Positions 741-9,582 are shown, counted from the first letter of the stretch. The stretch: 11,029 bases of DNA from a virus (IMGVR_UViG_2671181094_000005), one strand, 5' to 3'. Numbers and translations are program-made. The notes: generated by a model from the sequence alone, not told the origin.

Positions 741-3185
741 TCAGCTGATACTGATACCTGCTGTGGATTTCTTCATCACCACAACCAGCAAATCACTGAT
801 ACTGGCTGTGGGATACCAGTCATTTACCAGCCACGCTGATACCGAAAACTCCAGCGTCATGTGACCGTGACCGGCAGGCATATCAATAACACCTGTATAA
901 ACCAGCGTATTATCCAGCGCGGTACGGTTATAAATTTCAGCACCGTTTTTCTTCACTATCAGGCGGCATGACGAATAAATATCGTTATTCTCCCGCTCAT
1001 GTTTAGCGTCACGAAACGCCACCGTGGGAATAACAATCTGCCGGTCAAACGGCTGATCGTCATAAACCCTGACGGTAATGGTCCCTGATGGCCACCGCTC
1101 CGGTGCACGGGAGTCCCGGGGGAAAGCTTTGCCCACTGTTTTAACGAGATCGCCTTCAATCTGGTTCGCAGACAGTTTTCCCAGAACCCGACAGTTTTCA
1201 TTTATCGTGACATTGTTGAGCGTCCCGGCGTTCGCATTCACACTGCCACTGATATCCGCATTTTTCGCCGTCAGTCGCCCGTCCGGTGTAAGGGAAAATG
1301 CAGGAGGATTACCGCCGCTGGTAATGGTGGGAGCCGTCAGGCGTTTCAGGAACACGTCGTTCATGAATATCTGATCACCCTGACCAACAAACATCGGCTT
1401 TGTGTTGCCATTCGCAGGATTAATCATCGCAATCCTGTCTGCCGCCAGCAGCACCTGACTCTGCATTCCTGCTGGCGTATTCTCAATACCGGCACCGATA
1501 CCCGCAATATAAAGGCGTCCGTCCTGCATCTGCTGCAGTTTCACGGCCCACATGCTGTTCAGGTTATTATTTGTATCAACCTGAACCTTCTGTATCTGCT
1601 GGATCGCTGCACTCTGGTCTTCCAGTTTCTTATTGACGGTCTGTGTGATTTCATTGCTGACATCCGTAATGGATGTCCTGATTTCAGCCAGGTCAGGCGC
1701 AAGCTGACCGTTATCAATCTGCGTCCACAGCTCCTGAGCCAGATGGGTTTTCCCTATCTCGCCTTTGAAAAAATCCAGATAGCCGGATGCGTCATCACTC
1801 GGCTGACCAACAGCCTCCACGAATGCCGATTTGCCAACGGTGTTCACACTGCGGATATAAAAGTAATAATCATGGCCCGGTTTGATATTGATACTGGCGG
1901 CTATCCAGTACAGCCCCGCACCAAGGTAGCGGGCTGTGGTTTCAACCTGCCTGATATCGGTAATCCGCGTTTCCGAGAACCAGAACTCAAACTGTACCGT
2001 CGGATCATAAACCGCAAGATGCGGCGTGGCAGTTATCTGAAAATAGCCCGGCGTCAGCTCAATCCGCGACGGTGCTACCGGTGCGGCAATCCGGAACGAT
2101 ACCGACGCCGGATCGCCCTGCTGTCCCCACGCATTTACCGCCCGGACTGTCAGCGTGTACCGTCCCAGCGCCAGTTGCGTGAAGCGGTATGTGGTTTCTG
2201 TCGTCCGGGCCGTGCTGACCAGCCGCTCACTGCCGTCGTCCGCTGCCACGGTCAGGCGAAGCATAAAGCTCACCCCCTTCACCACCTTCGGCGTGTCCCA
2301 GCGGGCCAGTACCTGATACTCCCCGCTGTCTGCGGTGACTTCGGCAGTCAGGTGCTGCACCGCTGGCGGCGTGACACCATTCACCGTGCCGCTCTGGTCG
2401 CCGTCAAAGTGCGCCCCGTTATCCACGATGGCCTCTTTTTCCGGCACATGCTGCACGGCGGTGATGGCATACGTGCCGTCGTCGTTCTCACGGATACTCA
2501 CGCAGCGGAACAGTCGCTGGCGCAGCGTCGGCAGCTTCAGCCCCCATACGCTGTATTCAGCAACACCGTCAGGAACACGGCTCACTTTTACCTTCACGCC
2601 GTCGGTGACGGACTGAACCTCCACGCTGACCGGACTCCCCTGCCCGTCAACCAGGCTTATCAGCGTGGTGCCGGAAGATGGCAGCGTGATTTCACGGTCG
2701 AGCGTCAGCGTCCGGGTCTGGCTGTTTACCGCCAGCACGCGCCCGCCGGTGCTGATACCGGCATAGTCATCATCGCAGATTTCAATGACATCGCCCGGTA
2801 CATGGCGAAGCCCTTCAGCACCCACGCTGAAATCCACGGTCTGCGTCTCCAGCAGTTCCGTTTTAATCAGCCACAGCCCGGCGCGGTGTGCCTGCCCCCG
2901 GCTGGTACAGCCAAAGGCATCCATCTTCGTGACATTACGACCGTAACGGGCAATGGCCTGCGTATCTTCAACAAGCTCTGTCGCCGTCTCCCAGCCGTTG
3001 TTCGGGTCAATCCAGTTCACCTCAACGGCATTATGGCGGTCCTTCAGGGCGCTGAAGCTGTAGCGGAACGGCGCGCCATCATCCGGCATCACCACATTAC
3101 TGCGGTTATAGGTCCACACCTTATCTGATGGTCGGTCCTGCACGAACGTCAGCGTCTGCCCGTTCCATACCGGCATACAGCGCAT
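741..3185 (-). pseudogene. J: Tail tip / host specificity protein J, N-terminally truncated (C-terminal ~815 codons only)
   Basis: Long minus-strand ORF whose translation from [22 protein letters not shown] onward is colinear with roughly residues 318-1132 of lambda gpJ (recalled from memory, identity not computed), including the fibronectin-III-like central region; the last ~130 residues diverge. Upstream of codon MRCMP the same frame hits a stop (3225-3227) and the preceding sequence is terminase-derived in another frame, so the J N-terminal third is absent. The ATG at 3212 in the ORF track is fortuitous. Confidence 0.8.
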
Positions 3186-3186
3186 C

Positions 3187-3519
3187 ACTGGCTTTAAAGG
3201 GATCCGGTTCATTACGGTAGCCGGTCATGGCATCCATGGCTGGCTGAAAATATTCACCGCAGTGCGGACATGGCCAGTACCAGCGGCGGCGGTCACCACG
3301 ATTGTAAAGGGAAAGAATACCAGTCGTCGGTGGCGCTTCATGAGGCGACTTACGTCGCCATTTGCTGTCGCAGATGTCACGTCCCGGCGAGCTCTCCACC
3401 AGAGTCATCCCGGCGGACATAAATGTGGTGGTACGTTTTGAGGCCTGGGAGAAACCATCACCCTCGCTGTCGATATTCTCCGGAAAACGGTCGTAATCGG
3501 TTAAGGCGACAAACCGGTA
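3187..3519 (-). pseudogene. Terminase large subunit (lambda gpA-like) internal fragment
   Basis: Translation ...YRFVALTDYDRFPENIDSEGDGFSQASKR...WYWPCPHCGEYFQP... resembles the middle of lambda gpA (DDDIEQEGSPTFLGDKR ... HVACPHCGEEQYLKFGD, zinc-finger-like CPHCGE motif), recalled from memory. No proper start codon; frame differs from the upstream Nu1-like fragment and the downstream J fragment. The 99-aa track ORF 3121..3420 is the tail of this frame running into J-derived DNA. Confidence 0.55.
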
Positions 3520-3665
3520 ACGGGGTTCCCCCTGACAGTCGCAGCCACAGGAGTGTTGGCCGCGAGGAGCCGTTTTTTTACTGTGTCCCGGTGAAGCCCA
3601 AAGGCCTCGGCGATTTTAAAAACACTCCAGTAATAAGCATCACCGATCCCGCTCACATTTGACAT
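3501..3665 (-). pseudogene. Terminase small subunit (Nu1-like) N-terminal fragment, 54 codons
   Basis: ATG at 3665 with GGAG 6 nt upstream; translation MSNVSGIGDAYYWSVFKIAEAFGLHRDTVKKRLLAANTPVAATVRGNPVTGLSP* has an N-terminal helix-turn-helix-like segment positioned like that of lambda Nu1, and lies about 198 bp downstream of a cosN-like sequence. Full-length Nu1 is about 180 aa, so this is truncated. Hand-translated; not in the supplied ORF track (below its length cutoff). Confidence 0.5.
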
Positions 3666-3875
3666 AAGCAACTCCATCTGGCAGGTGAAAATCAGGTTTA
3701 TTTATATATTTCAATTAATTGCAAACTAGTCTAATGACAGGGAGAAAAAAATATTGTACAGCTGAAAAGAGAAATAACTTTTTAATTATCAATAAATTAC
3801 CAAACATGCTGCCGCCGCCATGGAAATGCAAAAACTAGCCTTTTTCCGCGACGCTCCCGCCCCGTGGCAGGGACC
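3666..3875 (-). other. Candidate cos site (cosN-like core plus AT-rich cosB-like region) upstream of the Nu1-like fragment
   Basis: Minus-strand sequence GGGCGGGAGCGTCGCGG (plus 3846-3862) resembles the lambda cohesive-end region GGGCGGCGACCTCGCGG (13 of 17 by eye). It is followed by AT-rich DNA and sits about 198 bp upstream of the Nu1-like start, versus about 190 bp in lambda. Similarity is partial and judged from memory. Confidence 0.35.
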
Positions 3876-4228
3876 CCCACTGGGAGGACCCGACAGCCTG
3901 ACAACCGTGACGAGCATCTGAAACAGAGCTTTACATAATGGCATGGGGATAATTCAGAAGGACATCACAGCATGCCCACACAAATTAGTGTGAGTGTCCT
4001 GTTTCTTACTACGCGCAGGACTGACGAGCATGAGGGGAAAATACGAGAACCGAAATGCCTTATCTTCAGAAATGCAGCCGGCATCCGAACTGGACGATAT
4101 TGTAAATTCACCTAAATACGAGGCATTGCTGTAGTTGAATTGCATTGCTGTATTAGCCTGACAGTGACAGAATACGATATTGACTCTGTCACTTGTGAAA
4201 TGGTCAGAATGGTTAGCAGTTATGGTGA

Positions 4229-6151: not shown

Positions 6152-7179
<1,028 letters not shown>

Positions 7180-7292
7180 GGATATTTATCAGGATTTATC
7201 GGCTTCAAATCCCCGGATATGTTAAATCTTACCTCACCAGTGATGGGCACTGGCGGGAGGAGGATGTCAATCTGATAAACACAGAGGCGACT

Positions 7293-7553
7293 ATGGATTA
7301 CACAAATCTACCTAAACAAACTTTTGCTGATTTAATCGCACTCAGGCAAGCAGTCGTAGCTCTAATCAACTTGTTGCCGGAGAAGGAAAAGGAATTAGTT
7401 AAAGCGCTTCTTAACAGAACTGCCGCCGATTTTTCATCATATCCACTGACAGATGACCTTGCGGACCTTCCTGAATTAATTGCAGCGTCCGCCAATAAGC
7501 TTACTGAAGAGATTTACCCTCCTCAAAAATCTTCACAAAATTCCTGCGAGTAA
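7293..7553 (+). CDS. Hypothetical small acidic protein (86 aa) on the opposite strand inside the lysis cassette
   Basis: ATG at 7293 preceded by ACAGAGG Shine-Dalgarno at 5-nt spacing; stop at 7551-7553 followed about 20 nt later by a hairpin plus T8. Predicted helical, net acidic. Uses several rare codons (CTA, AGG, AGA) and overlaps the 3' end of the convergent DUF1327 ORF by 53 bp, so coding status is uncertain. Confidence 0.4.
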   Translation: MDYTNLPKQTFADLIALRQAVVALINLLPEKEKELVKALLNRTAADFSSYPLTDDLADLPELIAASANKLTEEIYPPQKSSQNSCE

Positions 7554-8052
7554 CTTCAATGCAATAATCGTAAAACGCCGCAAACTGCTCATCGCGGCGT
7601 TTTTTTTCATCTTCAGAAGGAATCAGCACCGACAATTTTTTATTCAGATCAGCGACGCTGCCCTCCAGTTTTTCAATGGGCGATTCAATATCATCTTTTT
7701 CTGACCGCAATGCCGTCGGTGGCGTCTTCAGAGAACCAGTAATTCTTCCCGGTAGCTTTCCTTTGTAGGTTATCCACACATTCTGCGCCTCTAAAATTAT
7801 GGGGCGCTTTTCCGGCGACTGCTCATCCCCTTCACATAACCCGGCAGCAACATCCAGGAAGACCTGTCTGATGCTCCTTCTGGCTGCTGCCTCATAAAAC
7901 TCCAGCGCGGCACCTTCAACACGGTCCAGCGAGATGTCCAGGTCAAAAATTTCACCGTCAAAGTGTTTTTTGTCCCGTAAGGCTACAGTTACCGCCACTT
8001 TATTCTCAAAATTGCGAACTCCTTTCACAACCAGTTCATAGTCTTGAGTCAT
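7501..8052 (-). CDS. DUF1327 (YdfR-like) lysis-cassette protein, apparently with a C-terminal extension (183 aa)
   Basis: ATG at 8052, 4 nt after the holin stop. The N-terminal ~70 residues (MTQDYELVVKGVRNFENKV...EGAALEFYEAAARRS.RQVF) resemble E. coli YdfR as recalled; the remaining ~110 residues are not recognised. The ORF-track start at 8073 overlaps the holin and is less likely. Confidence 0.6.
   Translation of the reverse strand: MTQDYELVVKGVRNFENKVAVTVALRDKKHFDGEIFDLDISLDRVEGAALEFYEAAARRSIRQVFLDVAAGLCEGDEQSPEKRPIILEAQNVWITYKGKLPGRITGSLKTPPTALRSEKDDIESPIEKLEGSVADLNKKLSVLIPSEDEKKRRDEQFAAFYDYCIEVTRRNFVKIFEEGKSLQ
7575..7607 (+). terminator. Rho-independent terminator-like hairpin after the plus-strand small ORF
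   Basis: Stem ACGCCGC (7575-7581) / GCGGCGT (7594-7600), 12-nt loop, then 8 T (7600-7607). Lies inside the coding sequence of the minus-strand DUF1327 ORF; on the minus strand only 4 U follow the stem. Confidence 0.4.
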
Positions 8053-8056
8053 TGGA

Positions 8057-8272
8057 TTACTCTCTTCTCGCAACCTTACGCCTGTCTTCTTTAATCTTGA
8101 AATAAAGGTTTGTCAGATACGTCAGCATGCCAAATACCAGACTACCCAATACACCTATTGCCGCCCACTGTGAGGGCGTGACTTTATCGAGCAACTGTAA
8201 AAACCAGTAGCCAGCACTGCCTGCAGAGGTGCTGTAGGCGATGCCCGTTGTTAACTTATCCATGGATTTCAT
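8057..8272 (-). CDS. Class II holin, phage 21 S21-like pinholin (71 aa) with dual-start motif
   Basis: [71 protein letters not shown]: two transmembrane segments and a charged C-terminus, colinear with S21/EssD as recalled. Met1-Lys-Ser-Met4 dual-start arrangement (antiholin/holin). Strong GGAGGTGA Shine-Dalgarno 4 nt upstream of the ATG at 8272; the 99-aa track ORF is an upstream extension. Confidence 0.85.
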
Positions 8273-8363
8273 AGCCTCACCTCCGCAGATAACGGATGGT
8301 GTACACGGTTTGGTTCGAAGAAGGAAAGAAGTTACATTAGCGTAAGGCCCGAACATCTATTCA

Positions 8364-8394
8364 AAAAGAAAAACGCCAGCAATTATTCTGGCGT
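8364..8394 (-). terminator. Rho-independent terminator downstream of the AraC-family gene
   Basis: Minus strand: stem ACGCCAG / CTGGCGT (8373-8379 and 8388-8394) with 8-nt loop, followed by TTTCTTTTT. About 70 nt after the regulator stop and about 90 nt before the holin start. Confidence 0.5.
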
Positions 8395-8462
8395 AGCTAA
8401 AAATATCGTATAATCTTACACTTCAAAAAATAACTTTATAAAATGCCATCACATCATATCTT

Positions 8463-9176
8463 CTAAGAAAATCTTGATAAATATTGGTGCGGAGGCACAC
8501 CAAAATATCCTCTAAAAACACTTACAAAATATGATGCATTGTCATACCCGCATATTCCCGCCACCTTGCCGACAGTATGGTTACTGTAGATCAATAATCT
8601 TTGCGCCATCATCATTCGTTCTTCAAGAATTAATTTACTAAACGATAATCCTTCGTCTTTTAATTTTCTTTTTAACAAACTCTCGCTCATATATAATCTT
8701 GAAGATATATCACAAAGTCTCCATGACGCTGAGATATCCGAGTGAATAATAGCCTTAACTTTACAACCTAAGCTATTAAGACTTCCGAACAAAAAACTTT
8801 GCACTATTTTCTCTGAAGATAAGACAGCAAGACATGCAAGTGATATTTGATTTCTAACTACATCCACGGTTTTGCTATCACAATTCAAGCATGCAACCAA
8901 GTTCCTTAACAATGAAAAATCTTCACATTCTACTATCAAGTATGACGGATAAAACCTTCTTACAGAAAAAGGTGAGAGTGTGTAGTTTTTAAAGAAATCA
9001 TTAACTGTTTTCTCCTCAATATCTACGATCATTAGATGATCTGTATTTGACGAAAAAAGATCTTTTAAATTGTATTCAATGAGGACAGCATTTCCTTTTT
9101 TAAACAAAATATCTTCTTTACCAATTCGGACACCAAACGAGTTCAACACCAAAATGATAGAACATATGTATGGCAT
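8463..9176 (-). CDS. AraC/XylS-family transcriptional regulator (AppY/EnvY/Rns-like), AT-rich
   Basis: C-terminal AraC-type double helix-turn-helix (...WRLCDISSRLYMSESLLKRKLKDEGLSFSKLILEERMMMAQRLLIYSNHTVGKVAGICGYDNASYFVSVFRGYFGVPPHQY). N-terminus MPYICSIILVLNSF resembles AppY MDYVCSVVFICQSF (from memory). Most likely start is the ATG at 9176 with AGGTGGA Shine-Dalgarno; the ORF-track start at 9185 is a GTG. Strongly AT-rich with a ~400-bp AT-rich upstream region. Confidence 0.8.
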   Translation of the reverse strand: MPYICSIILVLNSFGVRIGKEDILFKKGNAVLIEYNLKDLFSSNTDHLMIVDIEEKTVNDFFKNYTLSPFSVRRFYPSYLIVECEDFSLLRNLVACLNCDSKTVDVVRNQISLACLAVLSSEKIVQSFLFGSLNSLGCKVKAIIHSDISASWRLCDISSRLYMSESLLKRKLKDEGLSFSKLILEERMMMAQRLLIYSNHTVGKVAGICGYDNASYFVSVFRGYFGVPPHQYLSRFS

Positions 9177-9582
9177 ATTATCCACCTGATATCATTGGGG
9201 TTACACCAGGTAAGTATAGGTGGAAAATCAATATTCGCCAGTTCAACAATAAGGAAAATCTCATTGCATCACAACTATAAAACCATGTGTTTAACTCACA
9301 AAAAACAAATCATTAAACTAATCTGTTATATTATAATAGCTGCGTGCAATAATAATATTATATGCTCTTTATATTCACTTGAAATATCTTCATATAAAAA
9401 CAGATTGAATAAAATCTTTTGGGGCTGGTATGTTTACCAACATTAAATTGCATCTCAATGTTTTCTTTAGCGTGAACAGGATTTTTATAAAAACTGACAC
9501 TATGAGCATCATAGCGTAGTTTTTACGATTGTAAATATCCTGCATACAGGAACTCATCACTTTCAGATGATATCGCATACAG

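Follow-up and report, generated by a model that had tools for sequence, protein, structure and literature searches.

What fills the space between the DUF1327 gene and the endolysin gene in a lysis cassette whose relatives keep these two genes close together? The question is raised by a stretch of viral DNA of 11,029 nucleotides (IMGVR_UViG_2671181094_000005; the whole stretch is referred to here as the window), in which the start codon of rrrQ, the gene for an R21-like endolysin, lies at 7179 and that of the DUF1327 open reading frame (ORF) at 8052, a measured distance of 873 bp that agrees with the ~870 bp of the original prediction, which had been made from the sequence alone. We found the space to be taken up by a plus-strand ORF of 86 codons (ORF86, 7293–7553) and by a convergent minus-strand segment of 71 codons (ext, 7501–7716) that extends the C-terminus of the DUF1327 ORF. 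The reading we favor, and hold to be reasonably probable, is that these are two convergent genes in a cargo slot, of which the plus-strand half is a moron-type unit that is transcribed independently, probably in the lysogen, and makes a small soluble protein.

Extent of the Insertion

Positions 6600–8400 of the window are 100% identical to Escherichia coli HS and to many other strains, and the source of the window is a decayed Qin-type prophage, the Qin of E. coli HS. In the Qin prophage of E. coli K-12, ydfR (103 aa) and rrrQ overlap by 4 nt, and in an alignment of the window with K-12 the divergence spans ~7195–7870. Sharper junctions were obtained from cassettes that are otherwise alike and have no cargo, i.e., no ORF in the place of ORF86 (L107/L114 type, with a DUF1327 protein of 116 aa). 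Relative to these the left junction is at ~7204, directly 3′ of TTTATCGG, and the right junction is at ~7716, directly past the codons for GSLKTPP, the same point (7717) at which the Prokaryotic Genome Annotation Pipeline (PGAP) truncates a "YdfR family" pseudogene. The DUF1327 and endolysin genes are separated by ~60 nt in the cargo-less cassettes, and the window has ~513 bp (~7204–7716) in place of ~45 bp, with a G+C content of 0.41–0.45 for the module vs. 0.50–0.54 for its flanks. As judged from these alignments, ~7204–7716 is an insertion relative to tight Qin-type cassettes, which bears out the insert predicted at 7180–7780 and tightens its boundaries. Every other feature named in that prediction was also located, at its given coordinates or no more than a few bases from them. 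Two parts make up the extra DNA, a unit on the plus strand (leader, ribosome-binding site, ORF86, and terminator) and the minus-strand ext. The idea that this DNA forms a gap beside the DUF1327 gene stood only in part, as the extra DNA is present but the minus strand is not empty, the DUF1327 frame running 71 codons further (7501–7716).

ORF86 and Its Terminator

ORF86 (plus strand) encodes an acidic, soluble protein with three predicted helices (isoelectric point 4.57, 13 acidic and 8 basic residues, grand average of hydropathy −0.2). In E. coli HS the same positions are annotated by PGAP as a hypothetical protein (WP_001557934.1), and the protein matches the 86-position profile of phrog_2572, listed by PHROGs as of unknown function, over its full length (E = 4.4e-53). 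A word-indexed search with ORF86 returned close relatives only, almost all of them named E. coli. An exhaustive HMMER search identified P0020 (89 aa) and P0019 (93 aa) as homologs over the full length, and a follow-up search identified relatives in Salmonella (P0026 and P0027), and the homologs are 41–49% identical to the window protein across its whole length.

There are no stops in seven divergent copies of ORF86, and the ratio of nonsynonymous to synonymous differences (pN/pS) between clades is 0.43. Among the five other frames over ORF86, four have 28–38 stops and the mirror antisense frame has six. In the part of ORF86 that does not overlap the minus-strand ORF, 36/26/47 of 65 sites vary at the first, second, and third codon positions, the third varying most (chi-square p = 0.001). 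Length variants of the gene differ by whole codons (an EKEK repeat longer or shorter by two codons, and a deletion of SA), and the start codon and ribosome-binding site are kept across clades, the latter being the Shine-Dalgarno-like AGAGG at 7283–7287 (plus strand), 5 nt 5′ of the ATG, for which other ORF86 clades have TAAGGA at the equivalent place.

Downstream of the ORF86 stop codon by 19 nt, and within the minus-strand coding sequence, is an intrinsic terminator (7572–7607, plus strand) with a 10-bp stem that is a perfect inverted repeat (7572–7581/7594–7603), a 12-nt loop, and a T8 run to 7607, whose RNA fold has a predicted energy of −18.1 kcal/mol (z = −2.5). This confirms the terminator originally placed at 7575–7607. 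A hairpin is present at the same place in all ORF86 clades. In the L092 clade its arms are CGCCAC/GTGGCG as opposed to CGCCGC/GCGGCG elsewhere, a double compensatory change that preserves pairing while altering two amino acids on the opposite strand (R to H and A to V), and stem mismatches (CGCAGC) occur mainly where ORF86 is not the adjacent cargo.

Based on the open frame in the homologs, the pN/pS of 0.43, the in-frame insertions and deletions, and the compensatory change in the terminator, we conclude that ORF86 is a genuine conserved protein-coding gene. The plus-strand acidic ORF of the original prediction, with its own ribosome-binding site, is thereby upheld as conserved at the protein level in related prophages, and so is its convergence on the 3′ end of the minus-strand ORF (7501–8052), with which it overlaps by 53 nt. 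The possibility raised against it, that the DUF1327 proteins are uniformly ~180 aa and the plus frame unconserved, does not describe these loci, as the related minus-strand ORFs range from 75 to 329 aa.

An AlphaFold2 model of ORF86 (mean predicted local distance difference test score, pLDDT, 72.6) has amphipathic helices at residues 8–25, 30–47, and 59–74. The profile and structure searches that had been suggested for the protein yielded neither family nor fold: there was nothing for ORF86 in Pfam, NCBIfam, PADLOC, or PDB sequence searches, and no match to its model in PDB or BFVD by Foldseek at E ≤ 0.001. We rejected the DUF1823 label that the PhiR5_1 and PhiR12 records give to ORF86 homologs, as the match to PF08853 covers 39 residues only and, at 12.9 bits (E = 0.13), falls below the cut-off of 25. 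No Rfam family was found in 7100–7800, and neither ORF86 nor the slot in which it resides was described in the literature searched, which dealt with DUF1327, ydfR, anti-small RNAs (sRNAs), Pas sRNAs, lysis-cassette morons, and the PhiR phages.

The Minus Strand Encodes a DUF1327 Fusion

The minus-strand ORF (7501–8052) encodes 183 aa, of which residues 1–112 (7717–8052) are a DUF1327, or YdfR-family, domain (PF07041, E = 2.6e-42, 143.4 bits against a cut-off of 25). PGAP treats 7717–8052 as a pseudogene "missing C-terminus," and PHROGs places the 183-aa ORF in phrog_2091, of unknown function. The ORF does not fit a single-domain DUF1327 protein, which has ~100–116 aa and a C-terminus of its own; its C-terminal 71 aa are a separate module, ext, whose last 17 codons and stop overlap ORF86. 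As a free-standing gene ext has 67–73 aa. It occurs in E. coli as a 67-aa protein (P0037, which 401 blocks of the collection list) encoded immediately after the holin gene at loci that lack a DUF1327 gene, the order being holin, ext, ORF86 (convergent), and endolysin. In Salmonella prophages it occurs as a 73-aa protein, and there the stop of the DUF2514 spanin gene and the start of ext overlap. In addition, ext is the N-terminus of a 213-aa protein in L187, and it is fused to two different DUF1327 alleles by two different in-frame junctions. Its frame has no stops in eight divergent copies, with a pN/pS of 0.8 in E. coli and 0.46 in Salmonella.

These comparisons lead us to conclude that the 183-aa ORF is an in-frame DUF1327::ext fusion and not a truncated pseudogene, and that, by the same patterns of conservation, both frames of the insert are coding. 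Searches of Pfam, NCBIfam, PADLOC, and PDB sequences with ext returned only sub-threshold coiled-coil (GCN4-like) matches, and the AlphaFold2 model of the 183-aa ORF (pLDDT 40.5) is unusable beyond two long helices in ext; in these predictions ext looks like a coiled coil. With regard to the other domain, residues 1–72 of K-12 YdfR bind the catalytic (N-terminal) domain of RNase E, and YdfR co-purifies with RNA (PMC13232886).

A survey of the ORF that follows the holin gene on the minus strand showed it to be assembled from DUF1327, the ext core, and further C-terminal modules in an order that varies, over the 75–329 aa noted above (e.g., L187 451–1092, L154 451–1257, and L162 41–1030, all minus strand). 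The late-strand protein is thus itself highly modular.

Linkage and Distribution of ORF86 and ext

ORF86 and ext are convergent, with an overlap of 53–59 nt and the ORF86 terminator inside ext, in four contexts. The first is the DUF1327::ext fusion of the window and of the complete deposited phage genomes PhiR63_1, 2H10, PhiR5_1, and PhiR12_x; the second is the free-standing ext between holin gene and ORF86 described above; the third is a K-12-like DUF1327 allele with a different extension; and the fourth, in Salmonella prophages, has the pair after the last of the lysis genes, in the order spanin gene, ext, ORF93 (convergent), and small terminase gene, with the endolysin gene not adjacent. 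As the terminator and 3′ end of ORF86 are inside ext, the pair always moves together. The module is present in 294 of 5,426 complete E. coli genomes (about 5%), and a scan of one genome per species found it in E. coli only.

Insertion sequence (IS) elements were encountered at this locus. In L088 (E. coli 13E0725, ~2806–4100) an IS3-family element splits ORF86 itself, and P0012 and P0023 are apparent read-throughs of ORF86-IS junctions.

The Leader and a Slot for Exchangeable Cargo

Upstream of ORF86, and abutting the rrrQ start codon, is a 21-nt leader motif, ATATTTATCAGGATTTATCGG (7182–7202, plus strand). No ORF86 clade departs from it, not even at the Salmonella loci, where the endolysin gene is not adjacent, and the pattern was matched exactly in at least 120 IMG/VR stretches. 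Within it is a −35-like TTTATC (7195–7200) that, together with a TATGTT 17 nt downstream, may form a weak sigma-70 promoter (7195–7223, plus strand), and the Salmonella clade has TTTATC-17-TATTGT, with identical spacing. The pattern TTTATC-17-TANNNT is present in 57 of 60 distinct leaders that bear cargo and absent from 16 of 19 that do not, although the sequences are related and the counts are therefore not independent. Further into the presumed 5′ untranslated region (UTR), a small hairpin (CCAGTG-ATGGG-CACTGG, 7237–7253, plus strand) can be read from the sequence; this segment is common to the leaders of cargo types F86, F87, F104, F116, and F210.

The leader also bears on a repeat to which the original prediction had drawn attention, with the caution that it could be chance. 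The inverted 8-mer pair exists (TTTATCAG at 7185–7192 and CTGATAAA at 7272–7279), and its left arm falls within the strongly conserved leader motif. The same 650 nt contain two further, unrelated perfect 8-nt inverted pairs, and at least two matches were obtained in 15 of 200 shuffles, so that the caution was justified and the pair is not significant as a repeat. We therefore rejected the CTGATAAA pair as a transposon-like or insertion-boundary repeat, as it is within chance and is not kept in other clades.

Scanning IMG/VR for the leader motif, followed by scripted analysis of the downstream sequence, revealed that the motif is followed by ORF86, by nothing, or by an ORF of another family. 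The alternative cargo families have 90 aa (the commonest), 104, 87, 105, and 210 aa, and the leader is common to every cargo type as far as GGATATGTT(A/T)A. No relationship was detectable between the families by hhalign (probability ≤2.3%), and weak collinear N-terminal hints between F86 and F90, F90 and F116, and F87 and F116 (E 0.02–0.04) are leads and not evidence. The four smaller alternative families correspond to PHROG families of unknown function. Several of the alternative cargos have their own hairpin and T7 terminators within the extended DUF1327 frame, and the 90-aa family has a pN/pS of 0.30 and codon-position variability of 14/9/32. Because the same leader precedes at least five unrelated families of small ORFs, we conclude from the survey that the site is a recombination-prone, hypervariable antisense cargo slot of S21/R21-type lysis cassettes and not a one-off insertion.

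Two relatives are worth describing here. In PhiR5_1, an 84-nt in-frame "insertion" in DUF1327::ext (L003 ~2930–3020; alignment columns 507–606) holds the hairpin and T7 run of the 87-aa cargo family, giving this phage two tandem terminators as a trace of an earlier cargo exchange. In the Stx1a phage Stx1_14040 (L005), the shared leader is followed by a 210-aa ORF (2631–3263, plus strand) that ends at its own hairpin and T7 run and overlaps an annotated 263-aa "hypothetical" coding sequence (CDS; 3012–3803, minus strand) by ~250 nt. The C-terminal third of the 263-aa CDS is probably antisense read-through and not real protein.

Possible Functions of the Unit

Morons are known from lambdoid phages in the sense of Hendrix and Juhala, an example being lambda bor next to Rz. 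The ORF86 unit has been inserted between genes that are adjacent in relatives, and has its own factor-independent terminator and a distinct base composition. It is the optional presence, antisense orientation, terminator, lower G+C, and exchangeable cargo that lead us to describe its anatomy as moron-type, and the promoter-like element, which tracks with cargo, was counted in favor of this as well. With its leader, weak promoter-like element, ribosome-binding site, ORF86, and terminator, the plus-strand unit points against the Q-dependent late operon, and would be transcribed independently of it, most likely from the repressed prophage, to produce a small acidic, presumably three-helix, cytoplasmic protein. 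On the other strand, ext would be a small coiled-coil gene of the late operon that in the window became fused in frame to the DUF1327 gene. In this scheme the activity of the promoter, the expression of ORF86 in lysogens, and any benefit to host or phage are what we infer. The lysis-timing or anti-host factor on which the original prediction had speculated was neither borne out nor contradicted by these comparisons.

Several observations weigh against this interpretation. A consensus promoter scan of 7180–7292 gave no site over threshold and did not report TTTATC-17-TATGTT, and the proposed −35 agrees with consensus at only three of six positions. The leader motif also falls within the 5′ UTR of the endolysin gene and occurs in cargo-less cassettes, so part of its conservation may serve endolysin translation and not ORF86 transcription. 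Within clades, pN/pS for ORF86 is just 0.68, indicative of moderate constraint, and the family is narrow, confined to prophages of Escherichia, Shigella, and Salmonella. The loci that IS elements interrupt in some strains show that ORF86 is dispensable in cryptic prophages. Lastly, that ORF86 is expressed in lysogens is pure conjecture on our part.

Foremost among the alternatives is that the unit acts mainly as a cis-antisense RNA, with the ORF secondary, pairing with the late lysis mRNA at the junction of DUF1327/ext and endolysin and either damping leaky lysis expression in lysogens or tuning endolysin expression and lysis timing. A transcript of this kind would be fully complementary to the late mRNA from ext to rrrQ, and the finding that unrelated cargos are without exception antisense and at one position fits a function that depends on location. 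An antisense RNA has been proposed at the endolysin gene of phage PAK_P4 (PMC12197685), and the RNase E binding of K-12 YdfR and its co-purification with RNA (PMC13232886) would also be in keeping. The evidence of protein-level selection on ORF86 and the 90-aa cargo argues otherwise, and the predicted transcript (~7230–7607), although it overlaps the 3′ end of ext, stops ~50 nt short of 7179 and so misses the rrrQ initiation region. The Salmonella module has no lysis gene downstream on the late strand, and the lack of an endolysin gene beside it speaks against a function bound up with endolysin expression in particular. Moreover, Q-modified polymerase and the abundance of late mRNA would probably swamp a weak promoter. 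Selection at the protein level, a predicted transcript that does not reach the rrrQ start, and the Salmonella context together make a purely antisense-RNA role less probable than the moron-type unit that we favor, and we regard such a role as unlikely.

In pore-forming colicin operons the immunity gene is read from the opposite strand and separates the colicin gene from the lysis gene. A similar layout suggests that ORF86 might be the cognate antagonist, or immunity-like partner, of ext or DUF1327::ext and be made independently of the late operon. The linkage of ORF86 and ext in four contexts, across ~50% sequence divergence, would be consistent with such a partnership, and the order of late gene, antisense small gene, and lysis gene mirrors, by analogy, that of the colicin operons. 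That linkage is explained by physical overlap, given the 53–59 nt of shared coding sequence and the terminator inside ext, and the ext core is also found with other cargos in the absence of ORF86 (L187 and L005). Furthermore, ext is not known to be toxic, Pfam and PADLOC searches detected no toxin domain in either ext or DUF1327, and PADLOC gave no match at E ≤ 0.1 for ORF86, the 183-aa ORF, free-standing ext, or the 210-aa cargo. We consider a partnership of this type still more doubtful than the antisense role.

A broader version, to which we attach little probability, is that the slot is a diversifying locus in which each cargo encodes a small protein, expressed from the prophage, that specifically counters or regulates the C-terminal module, itself variable, of the late protein next to it. 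The DUF1327 domain of that late protein binds RNase E, and the two would then form a colicin-immunity-like safety or regulatory pair with an effect on RNA decay or on the commitment to lysis, and cargo turnover would result from conflict among lambdoid prophages resident in the same cell. The least credible explanation, and one already disfavored, is that the insert is debris left by recombination as the prophage decays and ORF86 a functionless chance ORF: the Qin prophage of HS is indeed cryptic, its tail and terminase genes being truncated, the locus is broken by IS elements in some strains, and PGAP labels the DUF1327 gene a pseudogene, but the module is also in genomes that were deposited as those of complete phages and for which hosts are named, the ORF is open at 41–49% identity with an excess of synonymous changes, its start codon and ribosome-binding site are kept, and its terminator shows a compensatory change.

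Neighboring Features

The flanking genes follow from ORF calls and annotation, and all are on the minus strand: rzpQ (6152–6649) and rrrQ (6646–7179) to the left, and essQ, encoding an S21-type class II holin (8057–8272), to the right. The absence of a recognizable Shine-Dalgarno sequence before rrrQ, also part of the original prediction, was verified, the sequence preceding the ATG being CTGATAAATATCC. This is a feature of the R21-type endolysin gene throughout these cassettes, the cargo-less L107/L114 type included, where an invariant CCGATAAATCCTGATAAATATCC always precedes the start; coupling of the endolysin gene to an upstream stop codon is seen in the K-12 type only.

Within rzpQ is an out-of-frame ORF (6202–6498, minus strand) with a lipobox-like stretch, the counterpart of the K-12 o-spanin gene rzoQ, which is not annotated by PGAP in E. 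coli HS. The only Rfam family to reach its gathering score in the window is the cspA thermoregulator (RF01766, 5549–5946, minus strand, 109 bits), located in the 5′ leader of cspI. Just upstream of essQ, and downstream of a gene for an AraC-family helix-turn-helix (HTH) protein (8463–9185, minus strand), is a strong terminator-like hairpin and T-run (8373–8394, minus strand). Genes for this HTH protein, a YbgA-family protein, and a lipocalin separate the Q antiterminator gene from the holin gene.

Significance

The type of cassette considered here, S21/R21, is that of most Shiga toxin (Stx) phages (PMC8136144). The comparisons above show such cassettes to hold a hot spot, undescribed in the literature searched, in which small antisense genes replace one another downstream of a shared leader. 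If expressed in lysogens, the cargo genes would be candidate lysogenic-conversion, exclusion, or lysis-safety factors in both commensal and Shiga-toxigenic E. coli. There are also consequences for annotation: the 183-aa ORF should be described as a DUF1327::ext fusion and not as a truncated pseudogene, and in relatives like Stx1_14040 the long "DUF1327" CDS has probably been drawn too far, over the antisense strand of a genuine plus-strand gene. Experiments have simple handles in the conserved leader and in the embedded terminators.

Comparison with Known Systems

Among the closest known loci is ydfR in the Qin prophage of K-12. Residues 1–112 of the 183-aa ORF constitute the full DUF1327 domain, at the same position after an S21-type holin gene. 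The K-12 protein differs in having 103 aa and in being translationally coupled to rrrQ, whereas in the window the frame continues into ext and the endolysin start is 321 nt downstream.

Phage cis-antisense RNAs (lambda oop and paQ, P22 sar, and PAK_P4as15, PMC12197685) resemble the unit in that antisense transcription, here presumed, takes place in a regulatory or lysis region. They differ from it with respect to the protein-coding signature of ORF86, a transcript that would not extend over the endolysin start, and the occurrence of the module away from endolysin genes. The Pas sRNAs were rejected as a match, since they lie upstream of the holin gene and not at the slot.

The likeness of ORF86 to lambda bor and to the colicin immunity genes is architectural only. 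As with the colicin immunity genes, a small opposite-strand gene with its own signals (the promoter of ORF86 being putative) is flanked by a late or induced gene on one side and a lysis gene on the other, and the alleles at this one position are diverse. In contrast to those genes, ORF86 has no transmembrane segments, is predicted to be soluble, has no known toxin partner, and is carried by a phage and not a plasmid. In common with morons of the bor type, it is an optional gene at a boundary of the late region beside the lysis genes, directed against the late operon, with its own terminator and lower G+C. It departs from them in its location within the lysis cassette, between DUF1327/ext and the endolysin gene, and not after it; in having its 3′ end and terminator embedded in convergent coding sequence, and a putative weak promoter; in its product, a soluble three-helix protein by prediction and not a lipoprotein; and in that one leader serves several alternative cargos.

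The ORF itself was already catalogued as hypothetical, WP_001557934.1 in RefSeq and phrog_2572 in PHROGs being the same protein as ORF86, and neither resource gives its function, its partnership with ext, or the architecture of the slot. What is new is the two-gene anatomy of the insert, the reading of the minus-strand ORF as a DUF1327::ext fusion, the embedded and co-varying terminator, and the cargo slot with its shared leader.

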